NCBI GenBank assembly: GCA_023137195.1
Contig: JAGLPV010000005.1
Coordinates: 1-63,711, forward strand
DNA length: 63,711 bases
Direction: 5' to 3'
From: Candidatus Aenigmatarchaeota archaeon
Lineage (GTDB): Archaea; EX4484-52
The notes under the pieces are model-generated. The model did no database searches, was not told the origin of the DNA, and saw nothing but the letters and a program-made list of their open reading frames with translations. A program made the translations under genes and the position numbers. Position 1 is the first letter of the stretch, and the number at the start of each line of letters is the position of its first letter. Positions 1,568 through 53,353 of the stretch are shown in pieces.

Positions 1568-1598
1568 AAATTTTTTAACGAAAAATACGAAAAAATTT
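1568..1598 (-). repeat. Lone hairpin module, GTA-N6-GTT loop variant
   Basis: Perfect 9-bp stem AAATTTTTT/AAAAAATTT; minus-strand loop CGTATTTTTCGTT. Confidence 0.5.
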
Positions 1599-1644
1599 TC
1601 ATGTTGTGTCTAAACTTTTAAATACAAGATATAATTTATACACA

Positions 1645-1986
1645 ATGAAAAAAGAATCAGAAACAATCTTATTGAGAATATTCATCGGAGAATCAGATGA
1701 ATACGAAGGGAAAAAATTGTACCGCTATATTGTTGAAATGCTAAAAAAAGAAGGCATTGCCGGGGCAACAGTACTGCGTGGAATTGAAGGATATGGAAAA
1801 ACAAGCCACATCCACACAACATCAATACTAAGACTATCGACAGATTTATCAATAATTATCGAGGTGGTTGACCTGAAAGAAAACATAGATAAAATCAAGC
1901 CAATGCTGAACAAAATTATTAAAGGCGGACTGATTACAGAAGAAAAAGTCAAAATATTGTTTTACGACGGGAACAAAAAAAATTGA
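1645..1986 (+). CDS. DUF190 family protein (PII-like, crcB-associated)
   Basis: LRIFIGESD, GIAGATVLRGIEGYG and LRLSTDL motifs; ATG 1645 preferred over the ORF-track start at 1606. Confidence 0.9.
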   Translation: MKKESETILLRIFIGESDEYEGKKLYRYIVEMLKKEGIAGATVLRGIEGYGKTSHIHTTSILRLSTDLSIIIEVVDLKENIDKIKPMLNKIIKGGLITEEKVKILFYDGNKKN

Positions 1987-2024
1987 ACTCATCCATTACA
2001 CAATGTTAAACATCAAATTGCCGC

Positions 2025-2453
2025 TTACACACCATAAACCGAAAGAACAACAGAACCAGCTATTACCAGCAATAATCCAAGTATTTTAATTGATGTTATA
2101 GCTTCTCCTAAAAAGAATCCTATTAATGTTGCGACCGCTATGCTTCCGCCGATGATTATAGGACCTGCTATAGAAATAGAGAGTCCGGAACCATAAGCTT
2201 TGAGAGCAAAATAATCAATCGCCAGAGCGCAGAATCCGGCAATAACGCAAAAAAATATGCCTTTTGGATGAGTGTATAATACAGTAGACTTAATTTTCGG
2301 CAGCAGGAAAAACAACCCGGTAATAACTGCTGTAAGCGAAACAATTATTGCGCCGAACAAATAGTCAATGTCATTTGCTGCCTGTTGGTGAAATACCGTC
2401 CATACTCCAAAGGCAATTGCGGCAATTATTGCAAAAAATACACCAGGATGCAT
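2025..2453 (-). CDS. EamA/DMT-superfamily transporter
   Basis: Five TM segments; C-terminal FFLGEAIT..KILGLLL..G. Confidence 0.8.
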   Translation of the reverse strand: MHPGVFFAIIAAIAFGVWTVFHQQAANDIDYLFGAIIVSLTAVITGLFFLLPKIKSTVLYTHPKGIFFCVIAGFCALAIDYFALKAYGSGLSISIAGPIIIGGSIAVATLIGFFLGEAITSIKILGLLLVIAGSVVLSVYGV

Positions 2454-2505
2454 AGTTAATTATGGTTGAATATATTTTTAAACATTTGTTACTCTTAAAT
2501 ACATT

Positions 2506-3714
2506 ATGTCTCAATTTTCACTAGAGGGTGTATTCAACGATTATCTAGAAAGCAAGCCGATTTTCAAAAATAAACAGGCATTGACAATATCCTATACTCC
2601 GGATACCATCCCTCACAGGGAAAATCAGATAAGACAGTTGGGCATTATTCTTGCAACAGCATTAAGAGAGCAAAGACCATCAAATGTATTCATTTATGGC
2701 TCCACAGGAACCGGAAAAACGCTCATAACACAGCAGGTTTCCAGTGCACTTAAAAAAAAAGCAGGAGAACTTAATATAAATCTCAAGATACTCTATGTCA
2801 ACTGCAAGATGAAGCGGGTTTCAGACACAGAATACCGTCTTCTAGCATATCTTTGTGAACTCAGCGGTGTCAATGTCGCACCGACAGGACTTGCAACCGA
2901 GCAGGTCTACAAAGCATTTTTCGATTACATCTCAAATTATGACGGAGTCCTGATTGTCATCCTTGATGAGATAGACGAACTTGTAGCCAAAGTAGGAGAT
3001 ACAATTCTTTACAATATGACAAGAATAAATCAGGATTTATCCAAATGCAAATTCTCTTTTGTCGGCATATCCAATAACCTATCTTTCAGCAATGAACTGG
3101 ACGCCCGGGTAAAATCATCTTTATACGAGGAAGAACTGATTTTTCCCCCATACAACGCAGTCCAGCTCGCAGATATCCTAAGGAGCAGAACAGATATATC
3201 CGTTAATGAAGGCATGATTGAGGAAGGCGTAATAGAAAAATGCGCCGCTGTCTCTGCGCAGGAACATGGAGATGCAAGAAAAGCCCTTGATTTAATGAGA
3301 GTTGCAGGAGAGTTAGCCGAAAGAAAAAGCATGGAAAAAATAACAGAAAAACTAGTTGATTTGGCACAGTCAAGAATAGACAGGGACAGGGTTTTTGATG
3401 CAGTAAAGACACAGCCCAAACAATCCAAAATGATTCTCTACACTATAATATCCTGCTTTGAAAGAGAAAGCCAGAACATGCTTACTGGCGATGTCTATGA
3501 CAAATATATAGGATTATGCAAAAGAATCAGCATAAAATCCATAACCCAGCGAAGATTAAGCGACATAATTTCCGAGCTCGACATGCTTGGAATCATCAAC
3601 GCAAAAGTGATTTCAAAAGGCAGATACGGACGGACAAAAGAGATAAGTCTGGCCATTCCAATCTCAACAGCATCAAAAATAAAAAATGCAATAGAAGAGG
3701 AATTTTCATTTTGA
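2506..3714 (+). CDS. cdc6: Orc1/Cdc6 replication initiator
   Basis: HRENQI, Walker A GSTGTGKT, Walker B ILDEID, GDARKA, C-terminal wHTH GRYGRT. Confidence 0.97.
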   Translation: MSQFSLEGVFNDYLESKPIFKNKQALTISYTPDTIPHRENQIRQLGIILATALREQRPSNVFIYGSTGTGKTLITQQVSSALKKKAGELNINLKILYVNCKMKRVSDTEYRLLAYLCELSGVNVAPTGLATEQVYKAFFDYISNYDGVLIVILDEIDELVAKVGDTILYNMTRINQDLSKCKFSFVGISNNLSFSNELDARVKSSLYEEELIFPPYNAVQLADILRSRTDISVNEGMIEEGVIEKCAAVSAQEHGDARKALDLMRVAGELAERKSMEKITEKLVDLAQSRIDRDRVFDAVKTQPKQSKMILYTIISCFERESQNMLTGDVYDKYIGLCKRISIKSITQRRLSDIISELDMLGIINAKVISKGRYGRTKEISLAIPISTASKIKNAIEEEFSF

Positions 3715-3719
3715 TTAAT

Positions 3720-5186
3720 ATGGCAAAAAAAACCAAAATAACAAAGACAGGAAATATCAGCGAGTGGTATTCCTACATCATACAACAGGCAGACATGGCA
3801 GATTACTCGCCTGTTGGAGGGTGCATAGTGATGCTCCCTTATGCAACAAAAATATGGGAAAGCATACAAGGGTATCACAACATAAACCTGAAAAAAAGAG
3901 GCGTGGAAAATGCAAATTACCCTCTTCTTATCCCCCAATCTCTACTGGAAAAAGAGCAGGAGCATATTGATGGTTTCAGTGCAGAGGTAGCATGGGTAAC
4001 AGAAGGAGGATCAGAAAAACTATCAGAAAAACTCGCGATAAGACCGACCTCCGAAACAATCATGTATCATTTTTTTGCAAAATTCATACAAAGTCACGCT
4101 GACATGCCATTAAAACACAACCAATGGTGCAGTATTATCCGATGGGAACAGACCCTGACAAAGCCATTCATCAGGGGAAAGGAATTCTGGTGGACAGAAA
4201 CCCACACATGCCATTCGACAAAAAAAGAGGCAGAAGGCGAAGTGTCCGATGGATTGAAAGATTATGTCAATATGTGCGAAAACCTACTCGCAATTCCCGT
4301 AATACCGGGAAGAAAGCCACAACATGACAAATTCCCCGGCGCAGACTATACGACCGCAATAGAAGCAATGATGCCTGACGGGAAAAGCCTTCAGCTGGGA
4401 ACATCCCACTTATTAGGACAGCATTTTTCAAAGATGTTCAATATAGAATTCCAGGACAAAAACGAGAAAAAAGAATTTGCCTACCAGACAAGCTATGGCT
4501 TTTCAACAAGACTCCTCGGCGGACTGGTACTAGTGCACGGTGATGATGATGGTCTGGTTTTACCTCCAAAAGTTGCCCCACTACCGGTTGCAATTATCCC
4601 TATGTGGAAAACAGAGACAAAAGATAAAATCATAACAAAGGCAAAAAAAATAAAGGAACTCCTTGAAAAACAAAACATTGATGTAGTCCTTGATTTAGCC
4701 GAAGACAAAAGCCCGGGCTATAAATTCAGCAGATGGGAGCAAAAAGGCGTACCTCTAAGAATTGAAATAGGAGAAAATGAACTAAATGACAACACCGTCT
4801 GCTGTGTCAGGCGAAACTGGAAAACACGATTAAACAACAATCCCGACCTAAACAAAAAAGAAATTATTGCCACTGCCGATATTCAAAAGCAAATTCCAAA
4901 AATCCTTGAAGAAATACAAAAAGAATTGCTTTGTGATGCAAAAAAAGAACTGGACAAAAGATACTCTGTCGCAAAAACAAGAAAAGACTTTGACAAAGTC
5001 ATAAAAGAAGCTAATGGATACTGCGAAGCAGGATGGTGCGGAGACGAAAAATGCGATGAACAGATAAAAGAAGAAACAGCCGCAAGAATAGTATTGATTC
5101 CGGACAAGCCTAAAGAGAAACATGCAAAATGCATTGTCTGTGGAAAGCCCGCCAAAGAATCGGTGTTGTTTTCGAGGAAGTATTAA
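3720..5186 (+). CDS. proS: Proline--tRNA ligase, archaeal/eukaryotic type
   Basis: IRPTSET, QWCSIIRWE, F.WTE.H, anticodon domain G.P.RIEIG, C-terminal C..CG Zn motif; ATG 3720 lies 5 nt after the cdc6 stop. Confidence 0.96.
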   Translation: MAKKTKITKTGNISEWYSYIIQQADMADYSPVGGCIVMLPYATKIWESIQGYHNINLKKRGVENANYPLLIPQSLLEKEQEHIDGFSAEVAWVTEGGSEKLSEKLAIRPTSETIMYHFFAKFIQSHADMPLKHNQWCSIIRWEQTLTKPFIRGKEFWWTETHTCHSTKKEAEGEVSDGLKDYVNMCENLLAIPVIPGRKPQHDKFPGADYTTAIEAMMPDGKSLQLGTSHLLGQHFSKMFNIEFQDKNEKKEFAYQTSYGFSTRLLGGLVLVHGDDDGLVLPPKVAPLPVAIIPMWKTETKDKIITKAKKIKELLEKQNIDVVLDLAEDKSPGYKFSRWEQKGVPLRIEIGENELNDNTVCCVRRNWKTRLNNNPDLNKKEIIATADIQKQIPKILEEIQKELLCDAKKELDKRYSVAKTRKDFDKVIKEANGYCEAGWCGDEKCDEQIKEETAARIVLIPDKPKEKHAKCIVCGKPAKESVLFSRKY

Positions 5187-5201
5187 TTTGGTAAACTATT
5201 T

Positions 5202-5936
5202 ATGGTAATGCGCTCGGGAAATCCAGTTTTAAAAAATGACGAAGTATTCAGAAGAGAAGGGTCTGTAAATCCAAAATATGCAATGACCATAGAGGGAACA
5301 GTAAATAAAACATATTTTCTCCTTTTCCTTACCATACTTAGTGCTTCGTGGAGCTGGAACAAGCCTGATTTATTTATGCTGCTCATGATTGGAGGAGCAA
5401 TAGGTGGATTTATCACTGCTATAATAACGATTTTTAAGAAACAATGGTCTGGTTATACTGCACCTGTTTATGTGCTTTTTGAAGGATTATTCCTTGGAGC
5501 AGTCTCTGCTTTAATGGAGCAATTCTACCCGGGAATAGTGGTTCAGGCAATATTTTTGACATTTGGCACTCTTTTTTGCCTGCTCATGGCTTACAAGTCA
5601 AAATTAATCAAAGTGACTGAAAACTTTAAACTCGGCGTTGTTGCAGCTACAGGTGCTATTGCAGTAATATATATTCTAAGTTTCGTAATGGGTTTGTTCG
5701 GCATGAACATCCCTTTTATTCATGAAAGCGGTCTTCTGGGTATTGGATTTAGCTTATTTGTAGTTGTCATCGCTTCATTGAATTTAGTTCTTGATTTTGA
5801 CTTTATTGAAAACGGAGCAAAATCAGGAGCACCAAAATATATGGAATGGTACGGAGCTTTTGGTCTGATGGTTACTTTAATATGGTTGTATCTTGAAATT
5901 TTAAGGTTGTTGGCAAAATTAAGAAACAGGAGATAA
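5202..5936 (+). CDS. Bax inhibitor-1/YccA family membrane protein
   Basis: MT..GTVNKT, LVLDFDFIE.G...GAPKYMEWY.AFGL.VTLIWLYLEILRLL. Confidence 0.9.
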   Translation: MVMRSGNPVLKNDEVFRREGSVNPKYAMTIEGTVNKTYFLLFLTILSASWSWNKPDLFMLLMIGGAIGGFITAIITIFKKQWSGYTAPVYVLFEGLFLGAVSALMEQFYPGIVVQAIFLTFGTLFCLLMAYKSKLIKVTENFKLGVVAATGAIAVIYILSFVMGLFGMNIPFIHESGLLGIGFSLFVVVIASLNLVLDFDFIENGAKSGAPKYMEWYGAFGLMVTLIWLYLEILRLLAKLRNRR

Positions 5937-8459: not shown

Positions 8460-8481
8460 ATTGTATGGATTATCTCAATGC

Positions 8482-8696
8482 GACTTTTCTACATTCTTAC
8501 AAAAAATACGGAAAATTCTGTTCTTTACGCTTACGAGTATTTTCTGCATCCCTACGAAATTTACATGCAGAAAATAACCATGAAAATCGCTGGGCTTACA
8601 AGCAATACCGCGCTTTTCAAGGTGTTTCGGTGCTCACTGCGGAATTTGCTCTCCTTACAGGTTATACGGCAAATTCCTTTGTTCACTACCGAAACA
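8482..8696 (-). repeat. tRNA-trailer structured element, copy A (four GTA-N6-GTA hairpin modules)
   Basis: Starts at the base after the tRNA-Gly discriminator; near-identical to 43608-43772; hairpins at 8641-8677, 8582-8618, 8538-8576 and 8482-8518. Confidence 0.85.
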
Positions 8697-8767
8697 TGCA
8701 CTAGCCGGGAATCGAACCCGGATCGTAAGCTTGGGAAGCTTAAATTCTACCACTATACCACTAATGC
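8697..8767 (-). tRNA. tRNA-Gly(CCC)
   Basis: Acceptor GCATTAG/CTAGTGC+A, anticodon arm TAAGC-TTCCCAA-GCTTA, GGTTCGATTCC T-arm; no intron, CCA not encoded. Confidence 0.96.
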
Positions 8768-8771
8768 ACAA

Positions 8772-11198: not shown

Positions 11199-11199
11199 T

Positions 11200-16961: not shown

Positions 16962-17077
16962 ATTATATCACGGCACAAAAGTAATGCAAGTAATGTGGCG
17001 CGATATACTAGCAAAATACATAAATACTATCCAAATACCAATTATATTTTTTGCATATTTATGTGTTTTGCTATAAT
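16962..17077. repeat. Composite palindromic element, short copy (116 bp)
   Basis: Ends ATTATA...TATAAT; two hairpins; shares both ends with 50680-50949. Confidence 0.8.
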
Positions 17078-34022: not shown

Positions 34023-37000
34023 TTATATTTTATTCAAATAATCTCCTAATTCATCGATAAGAATAAAATCAACTTCATTTTTTACATAATGAAAAGAAGG
34101 AATATGGGTATTTACCACGAATCCTTTTTTTGTAATCCAGTTTTCCTTATCCTCAATCTTAAAATGATTCAAAATACTTTCTTTATACTTTTCAACAAAT
34201 GATAATTTTTTGTCTAATTTAGATAAATAAGATTTCTTACTTAGAAAAAATTTTTTGAATTCCTTAAAATTCCCATGTGGTTTTAGGTCTTTAATAGTAT
34301 GTTTAGCATCCAAAACAAAAATAATTTTTTTTGGTTTATTGATTGCTAAAATATCAATCTCCCCTCCTTCATTATCAAGATTCCCTGATTTGTTAATTCC
34401 GATTGTTTTATATTTATTTAGATTCGGGATTACTCTTTCTTCACCTAAAATTTCTTTAGATTTTTCTATTGCTTTATTTTCTAAAAAATTGTCTATCTTG
34501 CCATAATATTTTTTTAATGTATTTTCAATTTCAGAATTATCATCATTATATGGAAGGATCCCATTTGAGATTTTAGTTGTCCAGAACAATGCAGATTTAA
34601 TACAAAGTTCATTGCCAAATAAAATTTTATTATCAATTAACACCAAAGGACATAAAGTTGTTCGTTTTAGGTGATTAGATAATGTCAAAGGCATTAAGTT
34701 TATATCCTTTAAATCATCATAAGATAACGATAAAAAATTTATTAATTTATCTGTTTTCTCAGTAGTTAGTTCTTTATCCTTATCATAAACATATTTTACA
34801 AAGTCATCAGAATTAATTAAAGTCATAGGAAAATATTTATTTGGAATATTGGAATTTCCTAAAATCATTAAAAAATTTAAGATATCATCAAATGAAAATC
34901 CTAACAATTTAAAAAATGCTTCATTTATTGAATCAATATTACTTTCAAAAATATTTTTTAAATTAAATTCATCACTTGAATCACTTATTCTTCTCTCTGA
35001 TTCATTTTCTAAAAAAGATTGTATACGGAAAGAACAATCTCCCTTAATATCCTTTAACTCAAATAAATCTGTAATTTCTATCTTATTTTCCTGAATGTTA
35101 TGTTTAATATAATCAATAATCAAACTGCTGTCTTGATGAACAACAATTAAAGCAACTAAATAAGTCCAATCAGTCAAGGTCAATCTTTTTTCCCCTTTTG
35201 GATTTAATTTCAAGAAATGCGATAAAATTAACTTTGATGACATGGAAACAGTACCAATCTCATTTGTTTTTTTCATATCCTGTTCTTTTAAATCATATTC
35301 AATATATTTTTTAGAATCTATTTTTAATCTTAAATTATGCCTTGTTCTTTCACCCTCGCACAATTCTATTTGATTATAAATAAAAAAGATATTTTCAAAA
35401 CTCAAATTAGAAATATATTCTTCAATTCTACTTTTCAAGTAATCAAAGATTTTACCATTTATTTTATTAGCATCTTCATTTTCATAAATCCCCGGCTTTA
35501 TTTCTTCTTTCTTAATAAATTGTGTCAACTCTCTATTAACTCTCATTATATCCGATTTTATATCTTTTATTGAATAAGAATAATCGTTTAATTTTTTATT
35601 AATTACTGGTATACTATTATAAGAAAACCCCTTTTTAGAAAAAGGAATAAATTTATCAATTAATGAAATAATAGTATTATTTGAATTAGGAATATTAAAA
35701 TAATGAAATAAATTATCCAAATATAATTTTATAATCACCCTTTCACCTTCATTGTTATCGGAAGTAAATAATTTAGGAAAGTAATTAAAATCATAAATAA
35801 TACAAGTTTTTAGAACATTTCCGGATATAATTCCAGTTTTTAAAAAAATAGGGTTATTTTCATCAATTTTATCCAAATAGTCTTTTAAGAATCTAAATTT
35901 TTGATTTTTTTTAATTAATTCCACAGGGTATAATGATATAATATATTTATCATTACAATAATTTTGAGTTATAACCTCTTTTATTTCTTTACTCATTTTT
36001 TCTAAATTAGTATAAATCAAAGGACCTAAAAAATTAGAAAATGACTCGATAGACTCTGAAGAAAGATTCTTAATTTCAGAAGGATACTGAATAATTATAT
36101 CATCAAAAAACGAATTCTCAATTAGAGCCCCCCCGCTATAAGAAAATGTATCTATAAATTCATATATATTTTTGGAAACTTTTTTTATTTTATTAAAATT
36201 TTTCCCATATAACAATTCTATTTTTGCTTTCCTATTGGTAACATAGGTTTCATAAAGTTTATCATAGTAATAATCTAACCATTCATGAGGAGGAATTATA
36301 AGGGAATTTATTTGATCACTCGAAATTGGATAAGATAGATTATTTTTCAAATAATAAGGGATTCTATCTAAAAAATCAGCCGTGTGAATTTTATCTCTTA
36401 ACTCAGTATCATCCCTCACAAATCTAAATAAATCTAAGCTGGATTTAAATGTGTCTAACAATGCAAGATAATCAGAAAAAGAAATAATTAAATTATTTCC
36501 CTTGATATCCGGGATTGATGCATAATATTCACCAAGAGTATTTTCATGGACTATTATTTTGATAATTTCTAAGTCTAATTCTTTTAAGGGAATCAAACCT
36601 TTATTAATCAACAAAAATTCACCATGTTCATTAATGTCTCTCTCTAATAGTTCTAAAGAATTTGTTGCATTCTTTATCTCACTACTTAAATCTCTATCTT
36701 TAAGCACATTTGTAGTTTTAATCAAAAAAAGTTTATTGTAATCCACACAAGCACAAAAATCAATATTTCTCAGTAAAGGCTTTTTTTCATTATCTAATAT
36801 ATTAATTTCAAACTCAGATTTTGAGAAAAATTCTGGTGATTTAAATAATAATTGTTTCTTAAAAATTTTGGTTATTTCAACTAAATCCTTATGGGTTATC
36901 GTTTTATTTATTAATTCATAAAACGAAGTTAAGTGTTCCTGTGGGAATATCCAATAATATTTTTCATTTAATTTTATTTTTGCTTTTGTATGTAATTTAG

Positions 37001-37622
37001 ATTCAACTATCTGGTTCTTAACTTCCTCAATATTTTCATTAAAATCATCAATCGATAAGAAAACATCATCCTCTTCTGTAATAAATAATTGTTTTATATC
37101 ATCAAAAAAGTCATTGGATGGGATATATATGTAATCTTTTTCTTTTTTAGATTCTTCTTTTGCTGATATTTTTTTTATGAGTTTAGTTTGTAATGATAAT
37201 GAATCCATGAATTTAGAGTTTATTTGTTTAAGTTCCTCTTTCAAACTACTTTCTAAAAAATATTTAATGTATTTCTGATATTGTTCATAGCTATTCTCAA
37301 ATGGTCCTGCAAAAAAATAATATTCCTTTTTGTCAATAATTAAAGGAATTGACTTAAAAATAGGATAAGGACTCCAATCTTCTAACATTATAAAGTCTTT
37401 TTCATATTTTTGATTAAATATATTAATTATCTCTTGAAAAGAATCTCTGGAAATAGTTTTATTCTTGAAAGTATCAGATTTAATTGATAAAATAATAGTA
37501 CATAATAATTCAAATCTATACTGATATAACTGATTATTTGGATGGATTGATACTACTTGAGTCCACAAAAATAATTCATCTTGGTCATATTCTTTTAATT
37601 TTAAAATTAAATCATTTTTCAT
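34023..37622 (-). CDS. 1199-aa hypothetical protein with a C-terminal PD-(D/E)xK-like nuclease motif
   Basis: Uninterrupted, extremely AT-rich ORF; GEIDILAINKPKKIIFVLDAKH. Confidence 0.7.
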   Translation of the reverse strand: MKNDLILKLKEYDQDELFLWTQVVSIHPNNQLYQYRFELLCTIILSIKSDTFKNKTISRDSFQEIINIFNQKYEKDFIMLEDWSPYPIFKSIPLIIDKKEYYFFAGPFENSYEQYQKYIKYFLESSLKEELKQINSKFMDSLSLQTKLIKKISAKEESKKEKDYIYIPSNDFFDDIKQLFITEEDDVFLSIDDFNENIEEVKNQIVESKLHTKAKIKLNEKYYWIFPQEHLTSFYELINKTITHKDLVEITKIFKKQLLFKSPEFFSKSEFEINILDNEKKPLLRNIDFCACVDYNKLFLIKTTNVLKDRDLSSEIKNATNSLELLERDINEHGEFLLINKGLIPLKELDLEIIKIIVHENTLGEYYASIPDIKGNNLIISFSDYLALLDTFKSSLDLFRFVRDDTELRDKIHTADFLDRIPYYLKNNLSYPISSDQINSLIIPPHEWLDYYYDKLYETYVTNRKAKIELLYGKNFNKIKKVSKNIYEFIDTFSYSGGALIENSFFDDIIIQYPSEIKNLSSESIESFSNFLGPLIYTNLEKMSKEIKEVITQNYCNDKYIISLYPVELIKKNQKFRFLKDYLDKIDENNPIFLKTGIISGNVLKTCIIYDFNYFPKLFTSDNNEGERVIIKLYLDNLFHYFNIPNSNNTIISLIDKFIPFSKKGFSYNSIPVINKKLNDYSYSIKDIKSDIMRVNRELTQFIKKEEIKPGIYENEDANKINGKIFDYLKSRIEEYISNLSFENIFFIYNQIELCEGERTRHNLRLKIDSKKYIEYDLKEQDMKKTNEIGTVSMSSKLILSHFLKLNPKGEKRLTLTDWTYLVALIVVHQDSSLIIDYIKHNIQENKIEITDLFELKDIKGDCSFRIQSFLENESERRISDSSDEFNLKNIFESNIDSINEAFFKLLGFSFDDILNFLMILGNSNIPNKYFPMTLINSDDFVKYVYDKDKELTTEKTDKLINFLSLSYDDLKDINLMPLTLSNHLKRTTLCPLVLIDNKILFGNELCIKSALFWTTKISNGILPYNDDNSEIENTLKKYYGKIDNFLENKAIEKSKEILGEERVIPNLNKYKTIGINKSGNLDNEGGEIDILAINKPKKIIFVLDAKHTIKDLKPHGNFKEFKKFFLSKKSYLSKLDKKLSFVEKYKESILNHFKIEDKENWITKKGFVVNTHIPSFHYVKNEVDFILIDELGDYLNKI

Positions 37623-37818: not shown

Positions 37819-38604
37819 ATGGTCAAACCCTACTTCAACTCAGAAAATATACAGTTATTCCATGATGATTGTTTAAATGTTCTTAATTCACTACCTGCAA
37901 ATTCAGTTAATATGATTTTTGCAGATCCGCCTTATTTTCTCTCTAATGGCGGAATTTCCTGTAGAGCGGGAAAAATTGTTTCTGTAAATAAAGCAGATTG
38001 GGATAAATCACAAGGCACTGAAAAAGATTTTGAATTTACTCAAAATTGGATTAAAGCCTGTCGCAGGGTTCTAAAAGATAATGGCACTATTTGGATTTCC
38101 GGAACTATGCACAGTATTTATCAGGTTGGTTTTGCTTTGCAAAAACATAATTTCAAAATTCTAAATGAAATCAGCTGGTTTAAACCAAATGCACCGCCTA
38201 ATTTAACCTGCAAATATTTTGCCCATGCTCACGAAACGGTTTTATGGGCAAGAAAGCATCTAAAAATACCCCACCAATTCAATTATGAAGAAATGAAAAA
38301 CTGGAATGACAAATTAAGTCCAAACGGGAAACAAATGCGTAGTGTTTGGACTATTCCTTTAACGCCTCAATCTGAAAAAATCCATGGGAAACACCCGACT
38401 CAAAAACCAATAGAACTACTAAAAAGAATAATCTCTTCTTCAACAAAAGAAAATGCAGTTATTTTAGATCCATTTAACGGTTCCGGCACAACGGGCGTAG
38501 TCGCCTCTATGTTAAACAGAAAATATATAGGCATTGATAAAGAAGAAGATTTTTTGAAACTCACCTTAAAAAGACTGAATTTATTGAATAAAACGAATAC
38601 TTAA
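37819..38604 (+). CDS. Beta-class N6-adenine DNA methyltransferase (DpnA-like)
   Basis: FADPPY before LDPFNGSGTTG; HPTQKP. Confidence 0.93.
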   Translation: MVKPYFNSENIQLFHDDCLNVLNSLPANSVNMIFADPPYFLSNGGISCRAGKIVSVNKADWDKSQGTEKDFEFTQNWIKACRRVLKDNGTIWISGTMHSIYQVGFALQKHNFKILNEISWFKPNAPPNLTCKYFAHAHETVLWARKHLKIPHQFNYEEMKNWNDKLSPNGKQMRSVWTIPLTPQSEKIHGKHPTQKPIELLKRIISSSTKENAVILDPFNGSGTTGVVASMLNRKYIGIDKEEDFLKLTLKRLNLLNKTNT

Positions 38605-38629
38605 ATAGTACTAAGTGTTATATTATTAT

Positions 38630-39475
38630 ATGTGTGTCCAGATACCGAAATTCGTAAAATGGGCTGGTGGAAAAACCCAACTCATTGAGCAATTTATCCC
38701 ATTATTCCCAAAAAAATTTAATTGTTATTTGGAACCATTTGTCGGAAGCGGAGCAGTTTTTTTTCATCTAATCCAAAATTTCAAACCAAAAAAGATTATT
38801 CTTTCTGATATTAATGAAGAATTAATCAACGCATACCTGATAATTCGTGATGATGTTGAAAGATTAATCGTTGAATTAAAACAACATAAAGAATATCACC
38901 AATCAGAAGGCAAAAAATATTATTTGACAATTCGTGCAACTAATCCAAATGATTTGCCTCCTTTAGAAAGAGCCGCAAGATTTATTTATCTAAACAAAAC
39001 CTGTTTTAATGGTCTTTATAGAGTAAATTCAAAAGGTAAATTTAATGTGCCTATGGGTTCTTACAAAAACCCCGATATTATTCAGGAAGAGAAATTAAAA
39101 TTAATTTCTAAATTACTTCAAAATGTAATTATCAAAGTAATGTCTTTTGAAAAAATTATCAATTTAGCAAAAAAAGGAGATTTTGTTTATTTAGATCCGC
39201 CTTATTATCCGTTGCAAAAAGGGAAAAGTTTTACAACATATAGTAAAAACAATTTCTTGGAAAAAGAACAAGAACTTTTAACAAAAGTCTTTGAAACTTT
39301 AGATAAAAAAGGTTGTTATGTTATGGAAAGCAACAGCGAAACAAAATTTATCAAAAACCTTTATACCAACTTTAAAATTCACATGGTTACAGCAAGACGG
39401 ATGATTAACTGTGATGGTTCTAAACGAGGAGCCATAAACGAATATGTTATAACTAATTATGAGGTGCTAAAATGA
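38630..39475 (+). CDS. Dam-family (DpnM-like, alpha-class) DNA adenine methyltransferase
   Basis: KWAGGK, EPFVGSGAV, FNGLYRVN..G.FNVP.G, YLDPPY. Confidence 0.95.
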   Translation: MCVQIPKFVKWAGGKTQLIEQFIPLFPKKFNCYLEPFVGSGAVFFHLIQNFKPKKIILSDINEELINAYLIIRDDVERLIVELKQHKEYHQSEGKKYYLTIRATNPNDLPPLERAARFIYLNKTCFNGLYRVNSKGKFNVPMGSYKNPDIIQEEKLKLISKLLQNVIIKVMSFEKIINLAKKGDFVYLDPPYYPLQKGKSFTTYSKNNFLEKEQELLTKVFETLDKKGCYVMESNSETKFIKNLYTNFKIHMVTARRMINCDGSKRGAINEYVITNYEVLK

Positions 39476-40404
39476 AATATTTACAAACTTACAAAAAACT
39501 AAATCTGAAAGATGACGATAAAGAGATTTTTGAATATCTAATAAAAACGCTAAAAGATTCAATTTTCACATGGGACTATTTTGTTGAATTCCAAAAAGTA
39601 AAGAAAAATATAACAAAAATTGAGAAAGAACTCAATCTACTAAATGTGCTTATAGGAAAAGAAGATATTGAAACCGAATTTATAAATTTGGTTGCGGAAT
39701 ATCCAAAAGTAAGAACGGTTTTACCGATACTAATAGCAATCAGAAATAACAAAATGAAAGAAACAAAAATAATTGATGATTTCGATGAATTAATCTCAGA
39801 AAATAAAGATAACCTGTTTAATCCTTCTGAAGAATTGACAAATGAAGTTAAAGAGGATTTACTGGCATTTTTCAATAATTCAGGTTTAAAGGCAATTTTT
39901 GAAGATAAAAATATCAAAAATGTGGTTGATTATTGTTTTGGTGTAGAAGTGGGAATGGATACAAATGCCCGAAAAAACAGAACCGGAAAATCAATGGAAA
40001 GCATAGTTGAAAAAATAATTCAAAAATTTTCCAAAGAAAACAACCTTGAATATATTCCACAGGCAACACAAACAAAAATTAAAGCTCGATGGGGCGTTGA
40101 GATGGAATTGGATAAAACAAACAGAATTTTTGATTTTGCAATATTTAACAAATCCAAAAACAAGATCTATATTATAGAAACTAATTTTTATGGCGGAGGC
40201 GGTTCAAAATTAAAATCAACAGCCGGAGAATATCAATATCTTTATGATTTATTGTCTAAACAAGGAATTGATTTAATTTGGGTAACTGACGGTTTAGGTT
40301 GGAGGACAACAAAAAAATCATTATCTGAAACATTTATCCACAATGATTATGTCTTTAATATAGAACTCATTAAACAGGATATTCTTAAAGATGTAATATT
40401 TTGA
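39472..40404 (+). CDS. DpnII-family type II restriction endonuclease (GATC expected)
   Basis: G.EVG.DTNARKNRTG, FDF, IETNFY.GGGSKL, WVTDG.GW. Confidence 0.92.
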   Translation: MKYLQTYKKLNLKDDDKEIFEYLIKTLKDSIFTWDYFVEFQKVKKNITKIEKELNLLNVLIGKEDIETEFINLVAEYPKVRTVLPILIAIRNNKMKETKIIDDFDELISENKDNLFNPSEELTNEVKEDLLAFFNNSGLKAIFEDKNIKNVVDYCFGVEVGMDTNARKNRTGKSMESIVEKIIQKFSKENNLEYIPQATQTKIKARWGVEMELDKTNRIFDFAIFNKSKNKIYIIETNFYGGGGSKLKSTAGEYQYLYDLLSKQGIDLIWVTDGLGWRTTKKSLSETFIHNDYVFNIELIKQDILKDVIF

Positions 40405-43534: not shown

Positions 43535-43607
43535 GGGATGGTAGCTCAGTTGGCAGAGCGCTGGACTGAAGATCCAGGTGTCGCGTGTTCAAGTCACGCC
43601 CATCCCA
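43535..43607 (+). tRNA. tRNA-Phe(GAA)
   Basis: Acceptor GGGATGG/CCATCCC+A, anticodon arm CTGGA-CTGAAGA-TCCAG, TTCAAGT T-loop; no intron. Confidence 0.96.
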
Positions 43608-43772
43608 TGTTTCGGTAGTGAACAAAGGAATTTGCCCCTTAAGAGCAAATTCCGCAGTGAGCACCGAAACACCTTGAAAAGCGCGGTATTTAGCGTAAGC
43701 CCAGCGATTTTCATGGTGTTTTTCTGCACGTAATTTTCGTAAGACTGCAGAAAAATGTCGTAAGCGTAAGAA
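43608..43772 (+). repeat. tRNA-trailer structured element, copy B
   Basis: Starts at the base after the discriminator; same sequence as copy A apart from loop indel/substitutions and compensatory stem changes. Confidence 0.85.
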
Positions 43773-43795
43773 AACGAATCCTCGATATTTATTAT

Positions 43796-46406: not shown

Positions 46407-46443
46407 TTGAATACATTTTTATAATTTCCTTCAAATAATAATA

Positions 46444-48072: not shown

Positions 48073-48103
48073 TCTTTTTTAATAACTCTTATACAATATT
48101 CTA

Positions 48104-49339
48104 ATGGAACTTGGATTAATACTAATGTATTGCGTAGCGATATTTGGTCTGTTCAGTTCTTTTTTTTTCCTGCTTGTATTATTAGAATCAAAAAATAAAT
48201 TGTCAAACCCGAAAGTAAAAAAATTCAAAAAAGTCTCTGTCGTTGTTCCTGCCTACAATGAAGAGAAGACAATAAAAAAAACCCTTGACTCTCTTCTAAA
48301 CCTCAACTGGCCAAAAAGCAAAATCCAGATTATTGTAGTAGACGACGGCTCAACAGACAACACTTCTAAAATTGTAAAAGAATATGCCAAAAAAGGAATT
48401 ACATTAATCCAACAAAAAAACAAGGGAAAAGGATGCGCAATGAATGCCGGTCTTGCAAAAGCAGAAGGAGAATTCTTTGTATGCCTTGACGCAGATTCAG
48501 TAGTAGATAAAAATGCGCTTGAAAGTATGATAGGCTTTTTTGAAGATGAATCTGTCATGGCAGTGACGCCAACATTGAAATTAAACAACCCTAAAACATG
48601 GCTCGACAAAATCCAGAATGTCGAATACATAATAGGAATATACTTAAGAAAAACTTTTTCCATCATAAACGCCCTTAATGTAACCCCCGGACCTTTTACA
48701 GTATACAGAAAGTGGTTCTTTGATAAATTCGGCGGATACGATGAAGCAAATCTAACCGAGGATATGGAAATTGCCATGAGGATACAAAAACACCATTATA
48801 AAATAGAAAATTCCCTTGCCGCCTATGTATTTACAAAACCCGCATCAACATTTTCTGCCCTTATGAAACAAAGGGTTCGATGGTATAAAGGAGCACTGGA
48901 CAACTTCATAAATTATCGCGCCCTGTTCGGCAAAGACTACGGTGACTTCGGCGTAATCCTACTTCCAAGCTGCATCATCAGTATTGCTCTTGTAGAGTTC
49001 GTCTGCGCATACCTTGTAATCAAGAACATAATTGAATATTCAAAAGACATAATAAACTGGTATTATATTGGATTTGATTTCCATAATCTATTTGTCTTCC
49101 GCTTTGACTGGTTTATGTTTACCTTCAGACCGTTGATTATTCTTGCCACCGCCGGATTCATTTGCGGGATTATAATAATCCTAATTGCAAAGAAAATTTC
49201 AAATGAAAAAGAACCAATTAAGTTCGGTTATCTTTTGTACCTAATATTTTACCTGTTCTTATTTGGTCTGTGGTGGGCAGTTGCTATATATTACAAAATA
49301 ACCGGCAAAAAAATAAAATGGGGCGATAATGAAATATGA
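48104..49339 (+). CDS. Family 2 glycosyltransferase (processive, PgaC/cellulose-synthase-like)
   Basis: PAYNEE, DDGSTD, GKG, DADS, TED, QRVRW; flanking TM segments. Confidence 0.92.
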   Translation: MELGLILMYCVAIFGLFSSFFFLLVLLESKNKLSNPKVKKFKKVSVVVPAYNEEKTIKKTLDSLLNLNWPKSKIQIIVVDDGSTDNTSKIVKEYAKKGITLIQQKNKGKGCAMNAGLAKAEGEFFVCLDADSVVDKNALESMIGFFEDESVMAVTPTLKLNNPKTWLDKIQNVEYIIGIYLRKTFSIINALNVTPGPFTVYRKWFFDKFGGYDEANLTEDMEIAMRIQKHHYKIENSLAAYVFTKPASTFSALMKQRVRWYKGALDNFINYRALFGKDYGDFGVILLPSCIISIALVEFVCAYLVIKNIIEYSKDIINWYYIGFDFHNLFVFRFDWFMFTFRPLIILATAGFICGIIIILIAKKISNEKEPIKFGYLLYLIFYLFLFGLWWAVAIYYKITGKKIKWGDNEI

Positions 49340-50298
49340 CTGCTCTTCATATCGGGAATGTAAAAATAAAAAATCCTTTTATATTAGCCCCTCTTGCTAA
49401 TTTCACTGATTTACCCTTTCGGATACTTTGCAGGAAGTATGGTGTTGCTTTGGCAGTTACAGAAATGATTGATGCAGAAGGGATTTTCCACGATAAATAC
49501 AAAATCAAAGAAGAATTTACAAATGTAAAAGAAGACCGCCCTATATCCGCACAGATTGTCGGCTCAAACCCCGATGCTATGGTATACAGCGCAAAAGCGC
49601 TTCAAAAAGAAGGCGCAGACATAATTGACATAAACATGGGCTGTCCTTCATTCAAGCTTTCAAAAAAAGGAGCAGGAGCAAAAATCCTTGACAACATAGA
49701 ACTTATTCATAAAATAGTTACATTGACAGTAAAATCTGTAAAGATACCTGTAACTGTCAAGATAAGGGCTGGCTGGAATGATGACAAAAATGCAGTAAAA
49801 ATAGCAAAAACAATAGAGAAAGCAGGCGCCAGCGCAATAACAATACACGCAAGAACCGGCAAAATGAAATTTAGAGGAAAAGCAGACTGGACTATAATAA
49901 AAAAAATAAAAAAAGCCGTCAAAATACCTGTTATCGGAAACGGGGATGTCCGGTCAGCCGAAGATGCAATAGATATGCTCAAAAAGACAGGATGTGATTT
50001 TGTAATGATTGGTCGTGCATCAGTAGGAAATCCTTTTATCTTCAGGGAATGCCTGCATTATTTCAAATCTAATAAATTACTAAAACCAGCCACTCCTGGA
50101 GAAAGAAGAGATGCTTTCTTAGAGTTATGGAATATTTCAAAAAAATATTATGAACCGGAATTTTCGCGGTTTAAATTGTATTCTTATGGATTTACCAAAA
50201 CCCTGAAAGGAGGCAAGTTCTTCAGGGAGAAAATAAGCAATACAAAAACTTTAGATGAACTAAAGGAACTGATAGAGAATTCATTTGTCGGGATGTAA
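49336..50298 (+). CDS. dus: tRNA-dihydrouridine synthase
   Basis: LAPLA, QIVG, DINMGCP, VKIR, IHAR, GNGD, MIGRA. Confidence 0.94.
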   Translation: MTALHIGNVKIKNPFILAPLANFTDLPFRILCRKYGVALAVTEMIDAEGIFHDKYKIKEEFTNVKEDRPISAQIVGSNPDAMVYSAKALQKEGADIIDINMGCPSFKLSKKGAGAKILDNIELIHKIVTLTVKSVKIPVTVKIRAGWNDDKNAVKIAKTIEKAGASAITIHARTGKMKFRGKADWTIIKKIKKAVKIPVIGNGDVRSAEDAIDMLKKTGCDFVMIGRASVGNPFIFRECLHYFKSNKLLKPATPGERRDAFLELWNISKKYYEPEFSRFKLYSYGFTKTLKGGKFFREKISNTKTLDELKELIENSFVGM

Positions 50299-50330
50299 CG
50301 TTTAAATGATTTTAATGCATTAATCCAAGT

Positions 50331-50702
50331 ATGAAAATAACAATCAACAACAAGGAAATAGACAATATTATTTCAATGAAGAGTATATTTCAACTTACAA
50401 AAGGACTGATGTTCAAAAAAAGCGGCAGAGCTCTACTTGTATTTCCACTTAATGCAAAGCACTCCATCTGGATGGCTTGCATGAAATATTCACTGGATTT
50501 GATTTTCATTGATGAAAACTATAAAATTGTTGATATTTTTGAAGATGTCAAACCATTGACATTAAATCCAAAAACATGGAAAACATATATCCCTAAACAA
50601 AAATGCAGGTATGTACTTGAAGTTGAATCCGGTTTAATCAAAAAATATGATTTGAAAACAGGAATTTTAGTTAAGTTCAATTATATCACGGCACAAAAGT
50701 AA
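50331..50702 (+). CDS. DUF192 family protein; last six codons and stop supplied by the palindromic element
   Basis: KGLMF, IWM..M...LD.IFID, YVLEV..G. Confidence 0.88.
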   Translation: MKITINNKEIDNIISMKSIFQLTKGLMFKKSGRALLVFPLNAKHSIWMACMKYSLDLIFIDENYKIVDIFEDVKPLTLNPKTWKTYIPKQKCRYVLEVESGLIKKYDLKTGILVKFNYITAQK

Positions 50703-50949
50703 GGCAAGTAATGTGGCGTGATATAATCTCAAACGCAATTATATTACCCGTTATGCTAATTGCGTCTTCGAATATATTCACCCGCTCTTTGCGGTCGAAT
50801 ATACTAGCAAAATACATAAATGCTATCTAAATACCGATTATATTTTTGTATTATTTTCTGCTGTGAATAAAGTATAAGCAGAAAATAAGCTTAAAAGTAG
50901 TATTTTGCGTAGGGAAACTTTTATGATTATTTATGTGTTTTGCTATAAA
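50680..50949. repeat. Composite palindromic element, long copy (270 bp) with two nested inserts
   Basis: Same outer modules as 16962-17077, plus a 78-bp and a 76-bp two-hairpin insert. Confidence 0.8.
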
Positions 50950-50954
50950 AATAA

Positions 50955-51569
50955 TTATTTCTTAACTACTTTTTTCTCAGGTTTCTTTACAACTTTCTCG
51001 ACTGCTTTTGGCTTTTTTGCCTCTGTTTTTGGCTTTTCTTCTTTTTTAACAGGTTTTTTTACTACTGTTGTTTTTTCTTCTGCTTTCACAACTTTAGTTT
51101 CCGGCTTTTTGGCTTCTGTTTTTTTCGCTTTTTCCTTTTTGACCTTTTCTTCGAGTGCCTTCTGTTTTTTTGCACCAATTTTTTTTACTCTCGTTGGTGT
51201 ATTTACAACACCAATTCCAAGTTCTTTTGCCTTTTCTACAATCTGGTATTTTTTCTTTAGACCCGTGCTTTTTGAAATCAATACAACATCTTCTGCTTTG
51301 TTTAATTTTTCCACATCAGAGACATTGTGAACTAAAACTTCATATTTTGAATCTGCATTCTTTCCGAAATCTAATTTAGAATTTCCATATCCTACTCTTA
51401 CGAGAGGACCTTTATTGAATTTACCCAATCTTAATTTGTTGTGCCTTCCTCTTGGCTTTCTCCATGTATCTTTCAAACCCTTTTTTCTCCATGAATCTGT
51501 TCTTTTAAAAGATGGCTTAATTCTTTTGGCTACCTGACCTTTATCTGATGATGTTTTTGTATCTGTCAT
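50955..51569 (-). CDS. rpl32e: 50S ribosomal protein L32e with a long K/E/P/V-rich C-terminal tail
   Basis: F.R...WR....L...WRKPRG..NK, VGYG, LVHN..D.E. Confidence 0.9.
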   Translation of the reverse strand: MTDTKTSSDKGQVAKRIKPSFKRTDSWRKKGLKDTWRKPRGRHNKLRLGKFNKGPLVRVGYGNSKLDFGKNADSKYEVLVHNVSDVEKLNKAEDVVLISKSTGLKKKYQIVEKAKELGIGVVNTPTRVKKIGAKKQKALEEKVKKEKAKKTEAKKPETKVVKAEEKTTVVKKPVKKEEKPKTEAKKPKAVEKVVKKPEKKVVKK

Positions 51570-51573
51570 TTAA

Positions 51574-52116
51574 TCACAATTTGTGTGGTTTTTCAACAAT
51601 ATAGATGCCATCCTGAAATACACGACGATCTTTTTTCTTTGCTACGCATAACCTTTCAATCTGGGCAGCGCACAATCCTGCCTGCTCTTTGTTTATGCCT
51701 TCTACACTGAGGTATTCTTTATTATTTTCTTTATTAATAGTTATCTTGATATCTTCCGGAATGTCGAGTTCATGAACTCCCTTTCCCCCTAAAAAATTAG
51801 AAACAACAATCTTGCTATTCTCTGACTTCACTTTCATTGGAAAGTGAGAAAAAACAACTTTTAGTTTGTAGACATATGGCTCGTTTACTCCTTTCATCAT
51901 ATTCTTTATTCTCGCATACCATGCACCGACTATTGCTTTTTGCTTTTTCCTGTCTTTTGGAGAACTTACTATAAACGTATTGTCCTTAAATTCCAGATTT
52001 ATAAGCGGGTAAGAAAACCGTCTTTCTATCTGACCCAATTTTCCTTTAATTGTCAAAACATCATCTTCCAATACTGCTTCTGTCTCATCAAATAATGCAA
52101 TTTTTCTTTCTACCAT
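51574..52116 (-). CDS. rpl6: 50S ribosomal protein L6
   Basis: KG.LG...R, NMMKGV..PY.YKLK.V.SHFP, NFLG, D.RVFQDGIYI. Confidence 0.95.
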   Translation of the reverse strand: MVERKIALFDETEAVLEDDVLTIKGKLGQIERRFSYPLINLEFKDNTFIVSSPKDRKKQKAIVGAWYARIKNMMKGVNEPYVYKLKVVFSHFPMKVKSENSKIVVSNFLGGKGVHELDIPEDIKITINKENNKEYLSVEGINKEQAGLCAAQIERLCVAKKKDRRVFQDGIYIVEKPHKL

Positions 52117-52122
52117 ATTCCT

Positions 52123-52509
52123 TTAATATATAAATCCCATCAAAACGCCGCCTTCTTTGCCCAATACGGTCTTATGGGAAACTATGCCCTTTGGCGTTGA
52201 AACAATCAAATGACCAACATCAACTGCCGGAAGGTATTGTTTTTCATACTTAATGTATTCATTCTTCTTAACCGGCATACGTGGTTTTATTATCCTGCAC
52301 TTATTTATGTTTCCTTTTAGTGTCAGGTGAAAAACAACATCATTGTATGTCTTCTCTTCTTTAAAATCAGCTAAATAGTCATTTTCTTTCATGATTTTTA
52401 GGATATTTCTTATTGAATTAGAGCCATGTCTAATCACAATGTCTTTTTTCCCTGCTTTTTCTGCATTGTTTATTGCTGAAAAGCAGTCTGCTATAGGATC
52501 ATGCATCAT
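52123..52509 (-). CDS. rps8: 30S ribosomal protein S8
   Basis: DPIAD....INNAE, INKC..IKPR, IVST.KG, GG.L. Confidence 0.95.
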   Translation of the reverse strand: MMHDPIADCFSAINNAEKAGKKDIVIRHGSNSIRNILKIMKENDYLADFKEEKTYNDVVFHLTLKGNINKCRIIKPRMPVKKNEYIKYEKQYLPAVDVGHLIVSTPKGIVSHKTVLGKEGGVLMGFIY

Positions 52510-52550
52510 AGTGTATCATAAAAAAGATATAATACTTCTTTTTAAATCTT

Positions 52551-53075
52551 TCATTTGCGTCTTAATGTAAATTCGCGTTCTATCAAATAATTTTTTATCA
52601 TGTTGTTGAGTTCAAGAATCATTTGTTTTTGGTTATCCCCCATACACCAGAGATTTACTTTCAATATCATGTAATCCGGGTTTGTAAGTTCAACAGTCCC
52701 GTGTCTTGCCTTATTTTTAAGCACAGTATACTTTCCCAGCATGGTTCTTGGAACATGAAAATAGCCCGGTTTTTCCTCAATTACAATCTCTTTTACCGCT
52801 CCTTTTCTTTCATGCCCTTCTTCTTTTGCAGGAATACCCTTATATTTTCTATCTGGTGTATTGTAGGTAGCATGGCGCTTTTTTACCACACCAAAAATAT
52901 CTGTTGAAGAGAGTTTTTTTTTCTGCTCCTTTACATAAAGGGAGTAACTGTAACTCGACATCTTGGTATCTTTGATTTTAAGCCTTCTCCGGCACCCGGG
53001 ACACAATTCTATATCTTTTCCCAGATCCCACATAAATTTTACATTACAGAAATTACACATCACTTTTATTTTCAT
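52551..53075 (-). CDS. Hypothetical protein with an N-terminal zinc ribbon
   Basis: CNFC...CPGC; lies directly upstream of rps8. Confidence 0.6.
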   Translation of the reverse strand: MKIKVMCNFCNVKFMWDLGKDIELCPGCRRRLKIKDTKMSSYSYSLYVKEQKKKLSSTDIFGVVKKRHATYNTPDRKYKGIPAKEEGHERKGAVKEIVIEEKPGYFHVPRTMLGKYTVLKNKARHGTVELTNPDYMILKVNLWCMGDNQKQMILELNNMIKNYLIEREFTLRRK

Positions 53076-53124
53076 ATTAAATAATCGTGATTAAATATAT
53101 AAATATGTATTTATTTTCCACTTA

Positions 53125-53353
53125 TATAGAAATTATGTAATTGGCGTATAATGATTTCTATACATTAAAAGTGATATTAATTGTAAGGCTCTTTTATTGT
53201 ATAGAAATTATGTAATTTGCGTATAATGATTTCTATACATTAAAAGTAGTATTAATTGTAAGGCTCTTTTATTGTTTTTTAATTGTTGTGCAAATTGAAG
53301 GGAAACGATTACAAAACATTAAAAGTAGTATTAATTGTAAGGCTCTTTTATTG
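53125..53353. repeat. Tandem array of palindromic modules X-Y-X-Y-Z-Y overlapping the trpS 3' end
   Basis: X 38 bp (53125, 53200); Y 37 bp (53163, 53238, 53317); Z 42 bp (53275). Confidence 0.9.

Follow-up and report, generated by a model that had tools for sequence, protein, structure and literature searches.

The 63,711-nt contig JAGLPV010000005.1 (assembly GCA_023137195.1), which is analysed here whole as contig C45 and called the window, belongs to a Candidatus Aenigmatarchaeota archaeon and carries, at five loci, a family of short hairpins that share a GTA-N6-GTA loop on stems of differing sequence. The source metagenome-assembled genome (MAG), designated G000, comprises 1.42 Mb in 57 contigs with 35% G+C and is 85% complete. 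It encodes archaeal markers (aEF-2 and an archaeal-type TrpRS), and its nearest public relatives are MAGs labelled "Candidatus Nanohalarchaeota archaeon" (B49_G9, Guaymas, and CSMAG_1689). The comparison set consisted of 42 genomes of the order, identical to the whole phylum set compared: four of one genus (G000, G001, G002 and G003) and 38 others. Genes were crude longest open reading frame (ORF) calls, and the source MAG is fragmented and incomplete.

All hairpins listed in an earlier, sequence-only reading of the window were present at their coordinates. That reading had described 37-bp modules at five loci; the hairpins are real, but the loci proved to be pieces of larger composite repeats rather than free-standing 37-bp units, and it had missed that the hairpins belong to tRNA trailers and other larger composites and are confined to one genus. 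The composites, their hairpins and an isolated variant hairpin are listed in Table 1. Individual modules are single hairpins of 32-40 nt with a motif-bearing loop of 13-19 nt, the motif hairpins within each array all point one way, and no gene lies inside any module, in agreement with the view of a non-autonomous modular family. Variants occur as GTG..GTA at 50851 and GAT..GTA at 53163, while the hairpin at 53275 carries no motif.

Table 1. Hairpin composites of the window and related features of the source and sister genomes. Unprefixed coordinates refer to the window; C-prefixed ones refer to contigs of G000 unless another genome is named.
Feature	Location	Strand	Remarks
Trailer of tRNA-Gly(CCC) (8696-8768, minus)	8478-8695	-	directly 3' of the tRNA
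tRNA-Gly(CCC) trailer, SL1 inner hairpin	8641-8677	-	loop CGTATAACCTGTAAGGAGA
tRNA-Gly(CCC) trailer, SL2	8581-8619	-
tRNA-Gly(CCC) trailer, SL3	8533-8581	-	tail CGTAAGCGTAA
tRNA-Gly(CCC) trailer, fourth hairpin	8482-8518	-	weak stem
Trailer of tRNA-Phe(GAA) (43535-43607)	43608-43775	+	directly 3' of the tRNA
tRNA-Phe(GAA) trailer, SL1	43611-43668	+	short loop CCCTTAAGA, motif-less
tRNA-Phe(GAA) trailer, SL2	43675-43713	+
tRNA-Phe(GAA) trailer, SL3	43710-43764	+
tRNA-Phe(GAA) trailer, tail	43760-43771	+	CGTAAGCGTAAG
Short B composite, 115 nt	16962-17076	+	B hairpin (loop AAAGTAATGCAAGTAA) and long second hairpin
Long B composite	50680-50949	+	B hairpin 50680-50727 and two two-hairpin inserts
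Cassette array D-C-D-C-x-C, 75-bp period	53123-53353	+	D loop GTAATTGGCGTATA, C loop TAGTATTAATTGTAAGGCT; antisense at the trpS 3' end
Isolated variant hairpin	1566-1600	-	AAAATTTTTT / CGTATTTTTCGTT / AAAAAATTT; GTA..GTT, second triplet GTT
Intron-containing tRNA genes	C2:69662-69770, C14:47974-48097, C36:15573-15704, C50:161-277, C2:24983-25075		ARAGORN
Bro-N paralogues	C2:46857-47711, C48:4011-4871, C4:54392-55219, C55:30025-30867, C1:62815-63715
tnpA remnant L037	G003:C64:4904-5074		C-terminal fragment, internal TAG stop, no catalytic Tyr as read
tnpA remnant L038	G001:C73, contig end		N-terminal piece, seemingly intact (MKVMYAPHCSYRIRYHMVFVVKYRKDL...), truncated at the contig end

The sequence-only reading had proposed a comparison of the genome with dinucleotide-shuffled sequence and a covariance model, and both bore the family out. 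With GTA-N6-GTA placed inside a loop closed by a stem, 71, 43 and 29 matches were found at thresholds of at least 8, 10 and 12 pairs, as against about 11, 3 and 0.3 in ten dinucleotide shuffles. In a census of hairpins unselected for the loop motif, GTA-Nx-GTA loops were enriched at x=6 only (22+22, per strand, vs. 0-6 for the other values of x from 2 to 11). When the plain pattern GTA-N6-GTAAG was counted across the order, the excess was modest because the coding-sequence background is high. A first covariance model, built from 17 hairpins, recovered 14 motif hairpins in the window. The GTA-N6-GTA loop was thus confirmed and could be refined to G-Y-A-N6-G-Y-A-A-G, with the consensus nGTAWWTnKYGTAAGR; the second triplet is GCA in one G003 subfamily, and a few copies carry GTG, GAT or GTT.

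The claim that one loop is shared by differing stems held as well. At least 12 unrelated stem sequences carry the loop: families A (ttttctgca), A' (ttattttctgct), B (tatatcacggcaca), C (cattaaaag), D (tatagaaattat), E (ttgtgtataaact) and F (ttgtgtaattatt), the trailer hairpins SL1 (ggaatttsc) and SL2 (tgaaaagcgc), and several singletons; the loop is the sole part conserved between the stem families. When 44 distinct hairpins, drawn from three genomes, were aligned by fitting them to the model, 88.9% of the stem cells were paired, compared with 48.7% for shuffled and 50-62% for slid partners, and double-sided changes were present at all 10 stem pairs. Since these hairpins were chosen for pairing, the figures demonstrate stem diversity and not function; and since hairpins of single-stranded DNA predict the same covariation, they do not single out RNA.

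Within SL2, 20 distinct variants from three species were used to compare the variability of the loop positions, which were unforced by the search pattern. The entropy was 1.42 bits at N6, and 0.35 and 0.15 bits at GTA and GTAAG, respectively; the SL2 stems are nearly invariant at 0.06 bits, a figure partly forced by the search pattern. Because N6 varies widely within near-invariant SL2 while the triplets are kept, the triplets are under constraint and not merely young. The N6 types form sub-lineages, some common to G000 and G001 and some homogenised in G003, the only genome in which TCGCTC, TCACTC and TGACTC were seen; this suggests spread from a master copy or gene conversion and indicates concerted evolution. 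Such sub-lineages would also be expected if no reader existed at all, with every module descending from one hairpin, the loop kept through recency, gene conversion or a mutational bias of palindromes, and the spread due to slippage and recombination; indels flanked by direct repeats of variable length fit the same picture. We consider this unlikely, as sequence-unrelated stem families all keep the triplets at an exact 9-nt spacing on one strand, N6 is near-random in SL2 while the triplets persist, and slippage could hardly produce exact placement just after the discriminator of many different tRNAs (see below). The loop, kept on one strand while stems drift by compensatory change or differ outright, would therefore be what a reader recognises.

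The 3' half of the loop fits Y-GYAA-G, a GNRA-type tetraloop with its closing pair, and the closing Y-G pairs in 39/41 sequences, among which no double-sided covariation of this mini-stem pair was found. Several other motifs were tried on the loop and rejected. The archaeal bulge-helix-bulge splice motif (3-4-3) did not fit on inspection, as there is no room for its 4-bp helix in the six nucleotides that separate the triplets; nor did a kink-turn, K-loop or C/D box (RUGAUGA/CUGA), as neither tandem GA beside a 3-nt bulge nor the box sequences were seen. An Sm-site-like A-U4-6-G fits family A loops only, and as to kissing loops through N6, AGGCAA and TTGCCT are reverse complements of each other, although nothing systematic was apparent by eye.

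The trailers are a composite of about 170 nt and consist of SL1, SL2, SL3 and a tail, as in the tRNA-Phe(GAA) copy. SL1 is a long hairpin whose outer helix covaries between copies (TGTTTCGGT/ACCGAAACA, TTAAAGGCG/CGACCTTTAA and others), and its inner hairpin either bears the motif or has a short loop. Its internal loop, AGTGARCAAA / GCAGTGARC (within 8625-8692 and 43611-43668 of the window), is the trailer's most conserved sequence in a comparison of three species. Antiparallel pairing between its halves, GUGAAC and GUGAGC, would place tandem G.A/A.G mid-way, which is not a canonical kink-turn. In G000, trailers were found at 17-19 of 37 tRNA genes, each starting 0-2 nt past the discriminator and co-oriented with the tRNA, and the same placement and orientation recurred at about 14 tRNAs of the sister genomes G001 and G003. 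About 23 trailer copies are present in G000, several of them at contig ends. For the same tRNA, the presence and the subtype of the trailer vary between species; tRNA-Glu(CTC), for instance, is followed by a trailer in both G001 and G003, and by none in G000. The position of the first T5+ run after tRNAs did not differ cleanly between genes with and without a trailer.

Some further observations concern the trailers and their tRNA genes. Five extra G000 tRNA genes were called by ARAGORN solely when introns of 18-56 nt were allowed, and four of them carry a trailer, tRNA-Lys(CTT) being the one without; inspection of the tRNA introns by eye revealed nothing recognisable as a hairpin module. Two G003 trailers, L020 after tRNA-Leu(CAA) and L022 after tRNA-Gly(TCC), are interrupted by extra 60-80-nt segments; one is a hairpin TCTACAACAC...GTGTTGTAGA located within SL1, and the other, which is unrelated, separates SL1 from SL2. 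At locus L003, the SL1-SL2-SL3 unit is tandemly duplicated after tRNA-Glu(CTC).

Judged by their position, the trailers very probably form part of the tRNA transcripts, from which RNase Z would release them. The whole family could be read as an RNA-level element, in which transcribed 3' trailers and hairpins in 3' untranslated regions present the loop, as a 5' GUA bulge plus a Y-GYAA-G cap, to a protein or to a tertiary contact; the element would then serve 3'-end formation, protection or processing, with the tRNA trailer freed by RNase Z. In keeping with this, all trailers whose SL1 side adjoins a tRNA begin within the 0-2 nt given above and run in the direction of that tRNA, the helices covary between copies and species, and the GUAAG to GCAAG change of the G003 subfamily still leaves a GNRA loop beside the frequently paired closing Y-G. 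RNA folding also favoured the GTA strand over its complement in 29/33 non-tRNA modules (p=2.6e-6) and 17/24 trailers (p=0.013), although stable hairpins are formed by both strands. However, the mini-stem shows no double-sided covariation, the stem mismatch census (19 G:T vs. 13 A:C) showed little strand bias and was uninformative, and one G003 trailer copy stands tail-to-tail with tRNA-Val(GAC).

The placement of the non-tRNA modules bears on the same question. About 41 arrays are spread over the MAG, several at contig ends, and the five loci of the window are among them. Arrays are strongly enriched in convergent spacers (19/36 vs. 105/637, odds ratio 5.7, p=1.7e-6), whereas divergent spacers are depleted of them; this placement counts both for an element at the RNA level and for insertional DNA. 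But non-tRNA modules occur in both orientations relative to the preceding gene: for the B hairpin, 14 sense and 7 antisense cases were counted, and the trpS array and several C modules are antisense. Considering also that the family is missing from the congeneric G002 and from the rest of the phylum set, and so is not a core RNA-processing signal, we regard an element acting at the RNA level as the main alternative, though a tentative one and the weaker candidate.

Two further composite types make up the non-tRNA arrays. The B composite occurs at about 30 loci in forms of 115-270 nt. The basic 115-nt form is a B hairpin followed by a long second hairpin, and longer forms also hold inserts, each made up of two hairpins in 76-80 nt and bordered by ATATA or ATTATTT, with a third-level insert in one copy. 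In the long B composite of the window, the first insert is flanked by ATATA, and the second, which holds an A' hairpin (about 50851-50887) and a C-like hairpin (50890-50926), by ATTATTT. The second type comprises two-hairpin cassettes of about 75 nt (D+C, F+C and E+C), which also occur in tandem, as in the array at 53123-53353.

Comparison of filled and empty sites showed that the modules behave as inserted DNA. The array of about 230 bp at the 3' end of trpS (53331-54464, minus) in G000 is missing in the orthologues of G001 and G003. The last seven codons of the G000 gene (SIKEPYN) and its stop come from a C module read antisense (53331-53353), so that TrpRS ends in ...LDEFISIKEPYN, whereas the G001 protein ends in ...AKLSEFILTD, about 50 nt before the same downstream gene, and the G003 protein (82% identical) in ...KLNDFL*. 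Likewise, the convergent spacer between the L32e and DUF192-like genes holds the long B composite in G000, and none follows L32e in the three relatives, though synteny differs there. Modules are also inserted in each other. In G001, a D+C cassette of 75 nt splits an SL3 loop precisely where its first GTA stands, and GTA follows the cassette; elsewhere, the loop is uninterrupted and reads GTT-GTA-TTTTTT-GTAAGGA-AAC.

The modules further contribute to the ends of genes. The short B composite at 16962-17076 occupies the gap from an ArsF-like gene start to a thioredoxin-like gene of the MTH895/ArsE family, whose ORF runs about 35 codons into the element (16968-17076) and is thereby longer than the family model. 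The stop of the DUF192-like gene (50700-50702) is the TAA of the first GTAA in the B loop. A role of the motif as a pair of in-frame TAA stops, GTAA-N6-GTAA, was considered: such stops are real and used by two genes (window 50700 and C3:8481), and they leave the antisense copies unexplained.

The distribution of the family is narrow. A second covariance model, R2, was built from 52 hairpins and gave 52, 26 and 27 matches in G000, G003 and G001, respectively, none in the congeneric G002, and at most two chance-level matches (E=0.03-0.08) in each of the other 38 genomes; it favours known stems, so that the same loop on other stems elsewhere could escape it. By this measure the family occupies three of the four genomes of one genus and no other of the 42-genome set. 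Consistent with the earlier statement that it fits no described family, no Rfam, phage, plasmid or viral-contig match was obtained. Rfam at gathering score returned tRNAs only, permissive scans of a trailer and of 50600-53400 returned nothing relevant, and a metagenome scan returned G003 contigs only. This distribution and the absence of database matches indicate that the family is young and lineage-specific, and argue against a core cellular role. Separately, a sub-threshold Rfam match to the Enterococcus sRNA RefA5 (36 bits vs. a gathering score of 91) was seen at 52416-52486 inside the ORF 52123-52509; it is most likely due to chance.

An HUH endonuclease had been suggested as one possible reader of the loop. 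This lead found no support from co-occurrence, because PF01797 (IS200 TnpA/RAYT) has no match in G000 and its full-length matches without internal stops are confined to genomes devoid of motif hairpins, five in the order. The modules might still be REPs or MITEs derived from IS200/IS605 and moved by a Y1 HUH enzyme (RAYT/TnpA) that is missing from the MAG. The two-hairpin cassette recalls a left end plus a right end, the opposite strand of the loop reads CTTAC, which contains TTAC, the target of IS608, and both hairpin-bearing sister genomes hold tnpA remnants (Table 1). The G003 copy is a fragment containing a stop, though, and no motif hairpin lies upstream of the G001 tnpA start, the genus offering no complete IS200/IS605 for comparison of ends. 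In known Y1 systems, moreover, the stem and a foot tetranucleotide are conserved rather than a 15-nt loop. A Y1 origin is accordingly very unlikely.

A different protein class was considered on account of the sequence format, since 3+N6+5 is typical of Type I sites: a methyltransferase or restriction system resembling Type I could act on GTA(N6)GTAAG, which the repeats would display. G000 has three HsdS-type target-recognition-domain matches, and a precedent for methylation-target repeats exists in the GANTC-bearing CIR repeats of Caulobacter (PMC2229807). However, such domains are present in the hairpin-less G002 and were not found in the hairpin-bearing G003, the window's own restriction-modification operon is of the DpnII/GATC type, and strand-specific placement in loops would be left without a reason, which makes this the least probable of the alternatives, with hardly any weight. 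The operon, at 37819-40404, comprises an N6_N4 methylase, a Dam-like D12 methylase and a DpnII endonuclease; an AT-rich orphan gene of 1199 aa (34023-37622, minus) without a Pfam or NCBIfam match adjoins it.

Paralogue clustering of all G000 ORFs revealed no multi-copy transposase, only Bro-N, CheW/CheY, ABC and similar families. Bro-N domains are common in regulators of phages and mobile elements; the six G000 paralogues, with a mean identity of 58%, form the most similar multi-copy protein family of the MAG. Among the small contigs, a single IS1182-family element (DUF772 + DDE_Tnp_1_6) with inverted ends of the ACAGGCTGTCC type makes up a contig of its own, C53 (1787 bp), which has 25-nt overlaps with the ends of contigs C37, C47 and C57.

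Taken together, the hairpins very likely constitute a family of non-autonomous palindromic repeat modules that is restricted to one genus and inserts in intergenic DNA, at the ends of genes, in the 3' flanks of tRNAs and within its own members; they are probably selfish insertional DNA of the REP, MITE or RPE kind. Our preferred reading, at about even odds, is that the loop on the folded GTA strand serves as the recognition signal, and sometimes as the insertion point, for a structure-specific factor that spreads or maintains the modules in trans. The modules would move as two-hairpin cassettes of about 75 nt or as the three-hairpin unit of about 170 nt. They have colonised the position just after the tRNA discriminator, the 3' ends of convergent genes, at times replacing the last codons and the stop, and the interior of other modules. 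A factor encoded away from the modules would read G-Y-A-N6-G-Y-A-A-G on the GTA-bearing single strand and propagate or maintain them, the loop at least sometimes doubling as the insertion point. That one factor reads the loop, that it acts on DNA and not RNA, and how the modules move are inferred from the patterns described here. More doubtful is the proposal of a new kind of structure-specific mobile hairpin cassette, in which the loop would be both signal and landing site (the GTA of other loops, or the position after the discriminator), and in which an enzyme, or else an RNA intermediate with a 5' end set by RNase Z, would account for the movement of the cassette.

Several results weigh against the preferred DNA-level reading. 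No mobilising enzyme was identified in the 85%-complete MAG: no Y1 HUH transposase co-occurs with the hairpins, TnpB is absent, and the one transposase seen, of the IS1182 type, has ends unrelated to the hairpins. A systematic search for further split hairpins with loop inserts yielded no second clean case, only the G001 one and the module-rich C28 region. The direct repeats flanking nested inserts are of 3, 5 and 7 nt, and with this variable length slippage or microhomology fits as well as transposition; the short B forms could also be deletions of long forms. Perfect co-orientation with tRNAs from the RNase Z site is more naturally explained at the RNA level and, along with the missing enzyme, disfavours a purely DNA role. 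A purely RNA role is disfavoured by the antisense copies at mRNA ends and the absence from G002. The two can be compatible, as a selfish element may be tolerated or fixed behind tRNAs if its sense RNA is harmless or useful.

Among known systems, the modules can be compared with REP, BIME and REPIN sequences and their RAYT proteins in Enterobacteria and Pseudomonas (PMC3116915, PMC2817692). Both are short, multi-copy, intergenic palindromes that occur in arrays, are enriched at gene 3' ends, non-autonomous and lineage-specific. But REPs have a conserved stem, a GTAG/CGTC 5' foot, a small loop and a RAYT gene, whereas here conservation lies in a 13-19-nt loop carried on differing stems, with no co-occurring RAYT. 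MITEs derived from classical DDE transposons are no better match, given that the ends of the sole insertion sequence (IS1182, C53) are unrelated and the flanking repeats are not of fixed length. The Rickettsia palindromic elements (RPE; Ogata 2000) and those of Methanocaldococcus jannaschii (Suyama 2005), both cited in PMC2229807, are likewise palindromic, have no known transposase, insert in or beside genes and can add coding sequence, as the modules do in trpS and at the ArsE-like gene end; they are single long hairpins of 100-150 bp, with no shared loop motif, tRNA linkage or cassette nesting reported. E. coli tyrT/rtT (Rfam RF00391) also places repeated structured modules at or near the 3' ends of different tRNA genes, but has no sequence or Rfam similarity to the present family, whose loop motif also occurs far from tRNAs. 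PATEs, the MITEs derived from IS200/IS605, share the two-hairpin format, the strand specificity and the lack of a fixed-length duplication, and differ in that here no enzyme co-occurs and the conserved part is the loop.

A conserved loop on interchangeable stems is also the arrangement at the HUH Rep origins of CRESS-DNA viruses and rolling-circle plasmids. The nonanucleotide of circoviruses and nanoviruses is TAGTATTAC, and the loops of family C open with its first seven nucleotides, TAGTATT. Rep origins, however, occur once per replicon beside a rep gene, whereas at least 50 chromosomal copies are present here and the shared motif is two GYA triplets rather than the nonanucleotide. No Rep gene turned up, no search aimed at Rep families having been made, and no viral or plasmid match to the modules was obtained. 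The combination of a conserved loop with unconserved stems distinguishes the family; it is the opposite of that in REPs and MITEs and resembles the reading of HUH Rep origins.

The modules look like an undescribed variant of selfish palindromic repeat DNA. To our knowledge, small palindromic repeats are known mostly from bacteria, and in nearly all well-studied cases an enzyme reads the stem or terminal repeats. Practically, such repeats break assemblies, rewrite the 3' ends of genes (trpS and the ArsE-like gene) and create spurious ORFs, and masking them is advised in MAGs of this type. Here, the modules sit precisely at the 3' ends of tRNAs, in a symbiont-type archaeal genome of 1.4 Mb that is nearly devoid of transposases. 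A reader of the loop, if there is one, would be novel, be it a structure-specific DNA enzyme or an RNA-binding system.

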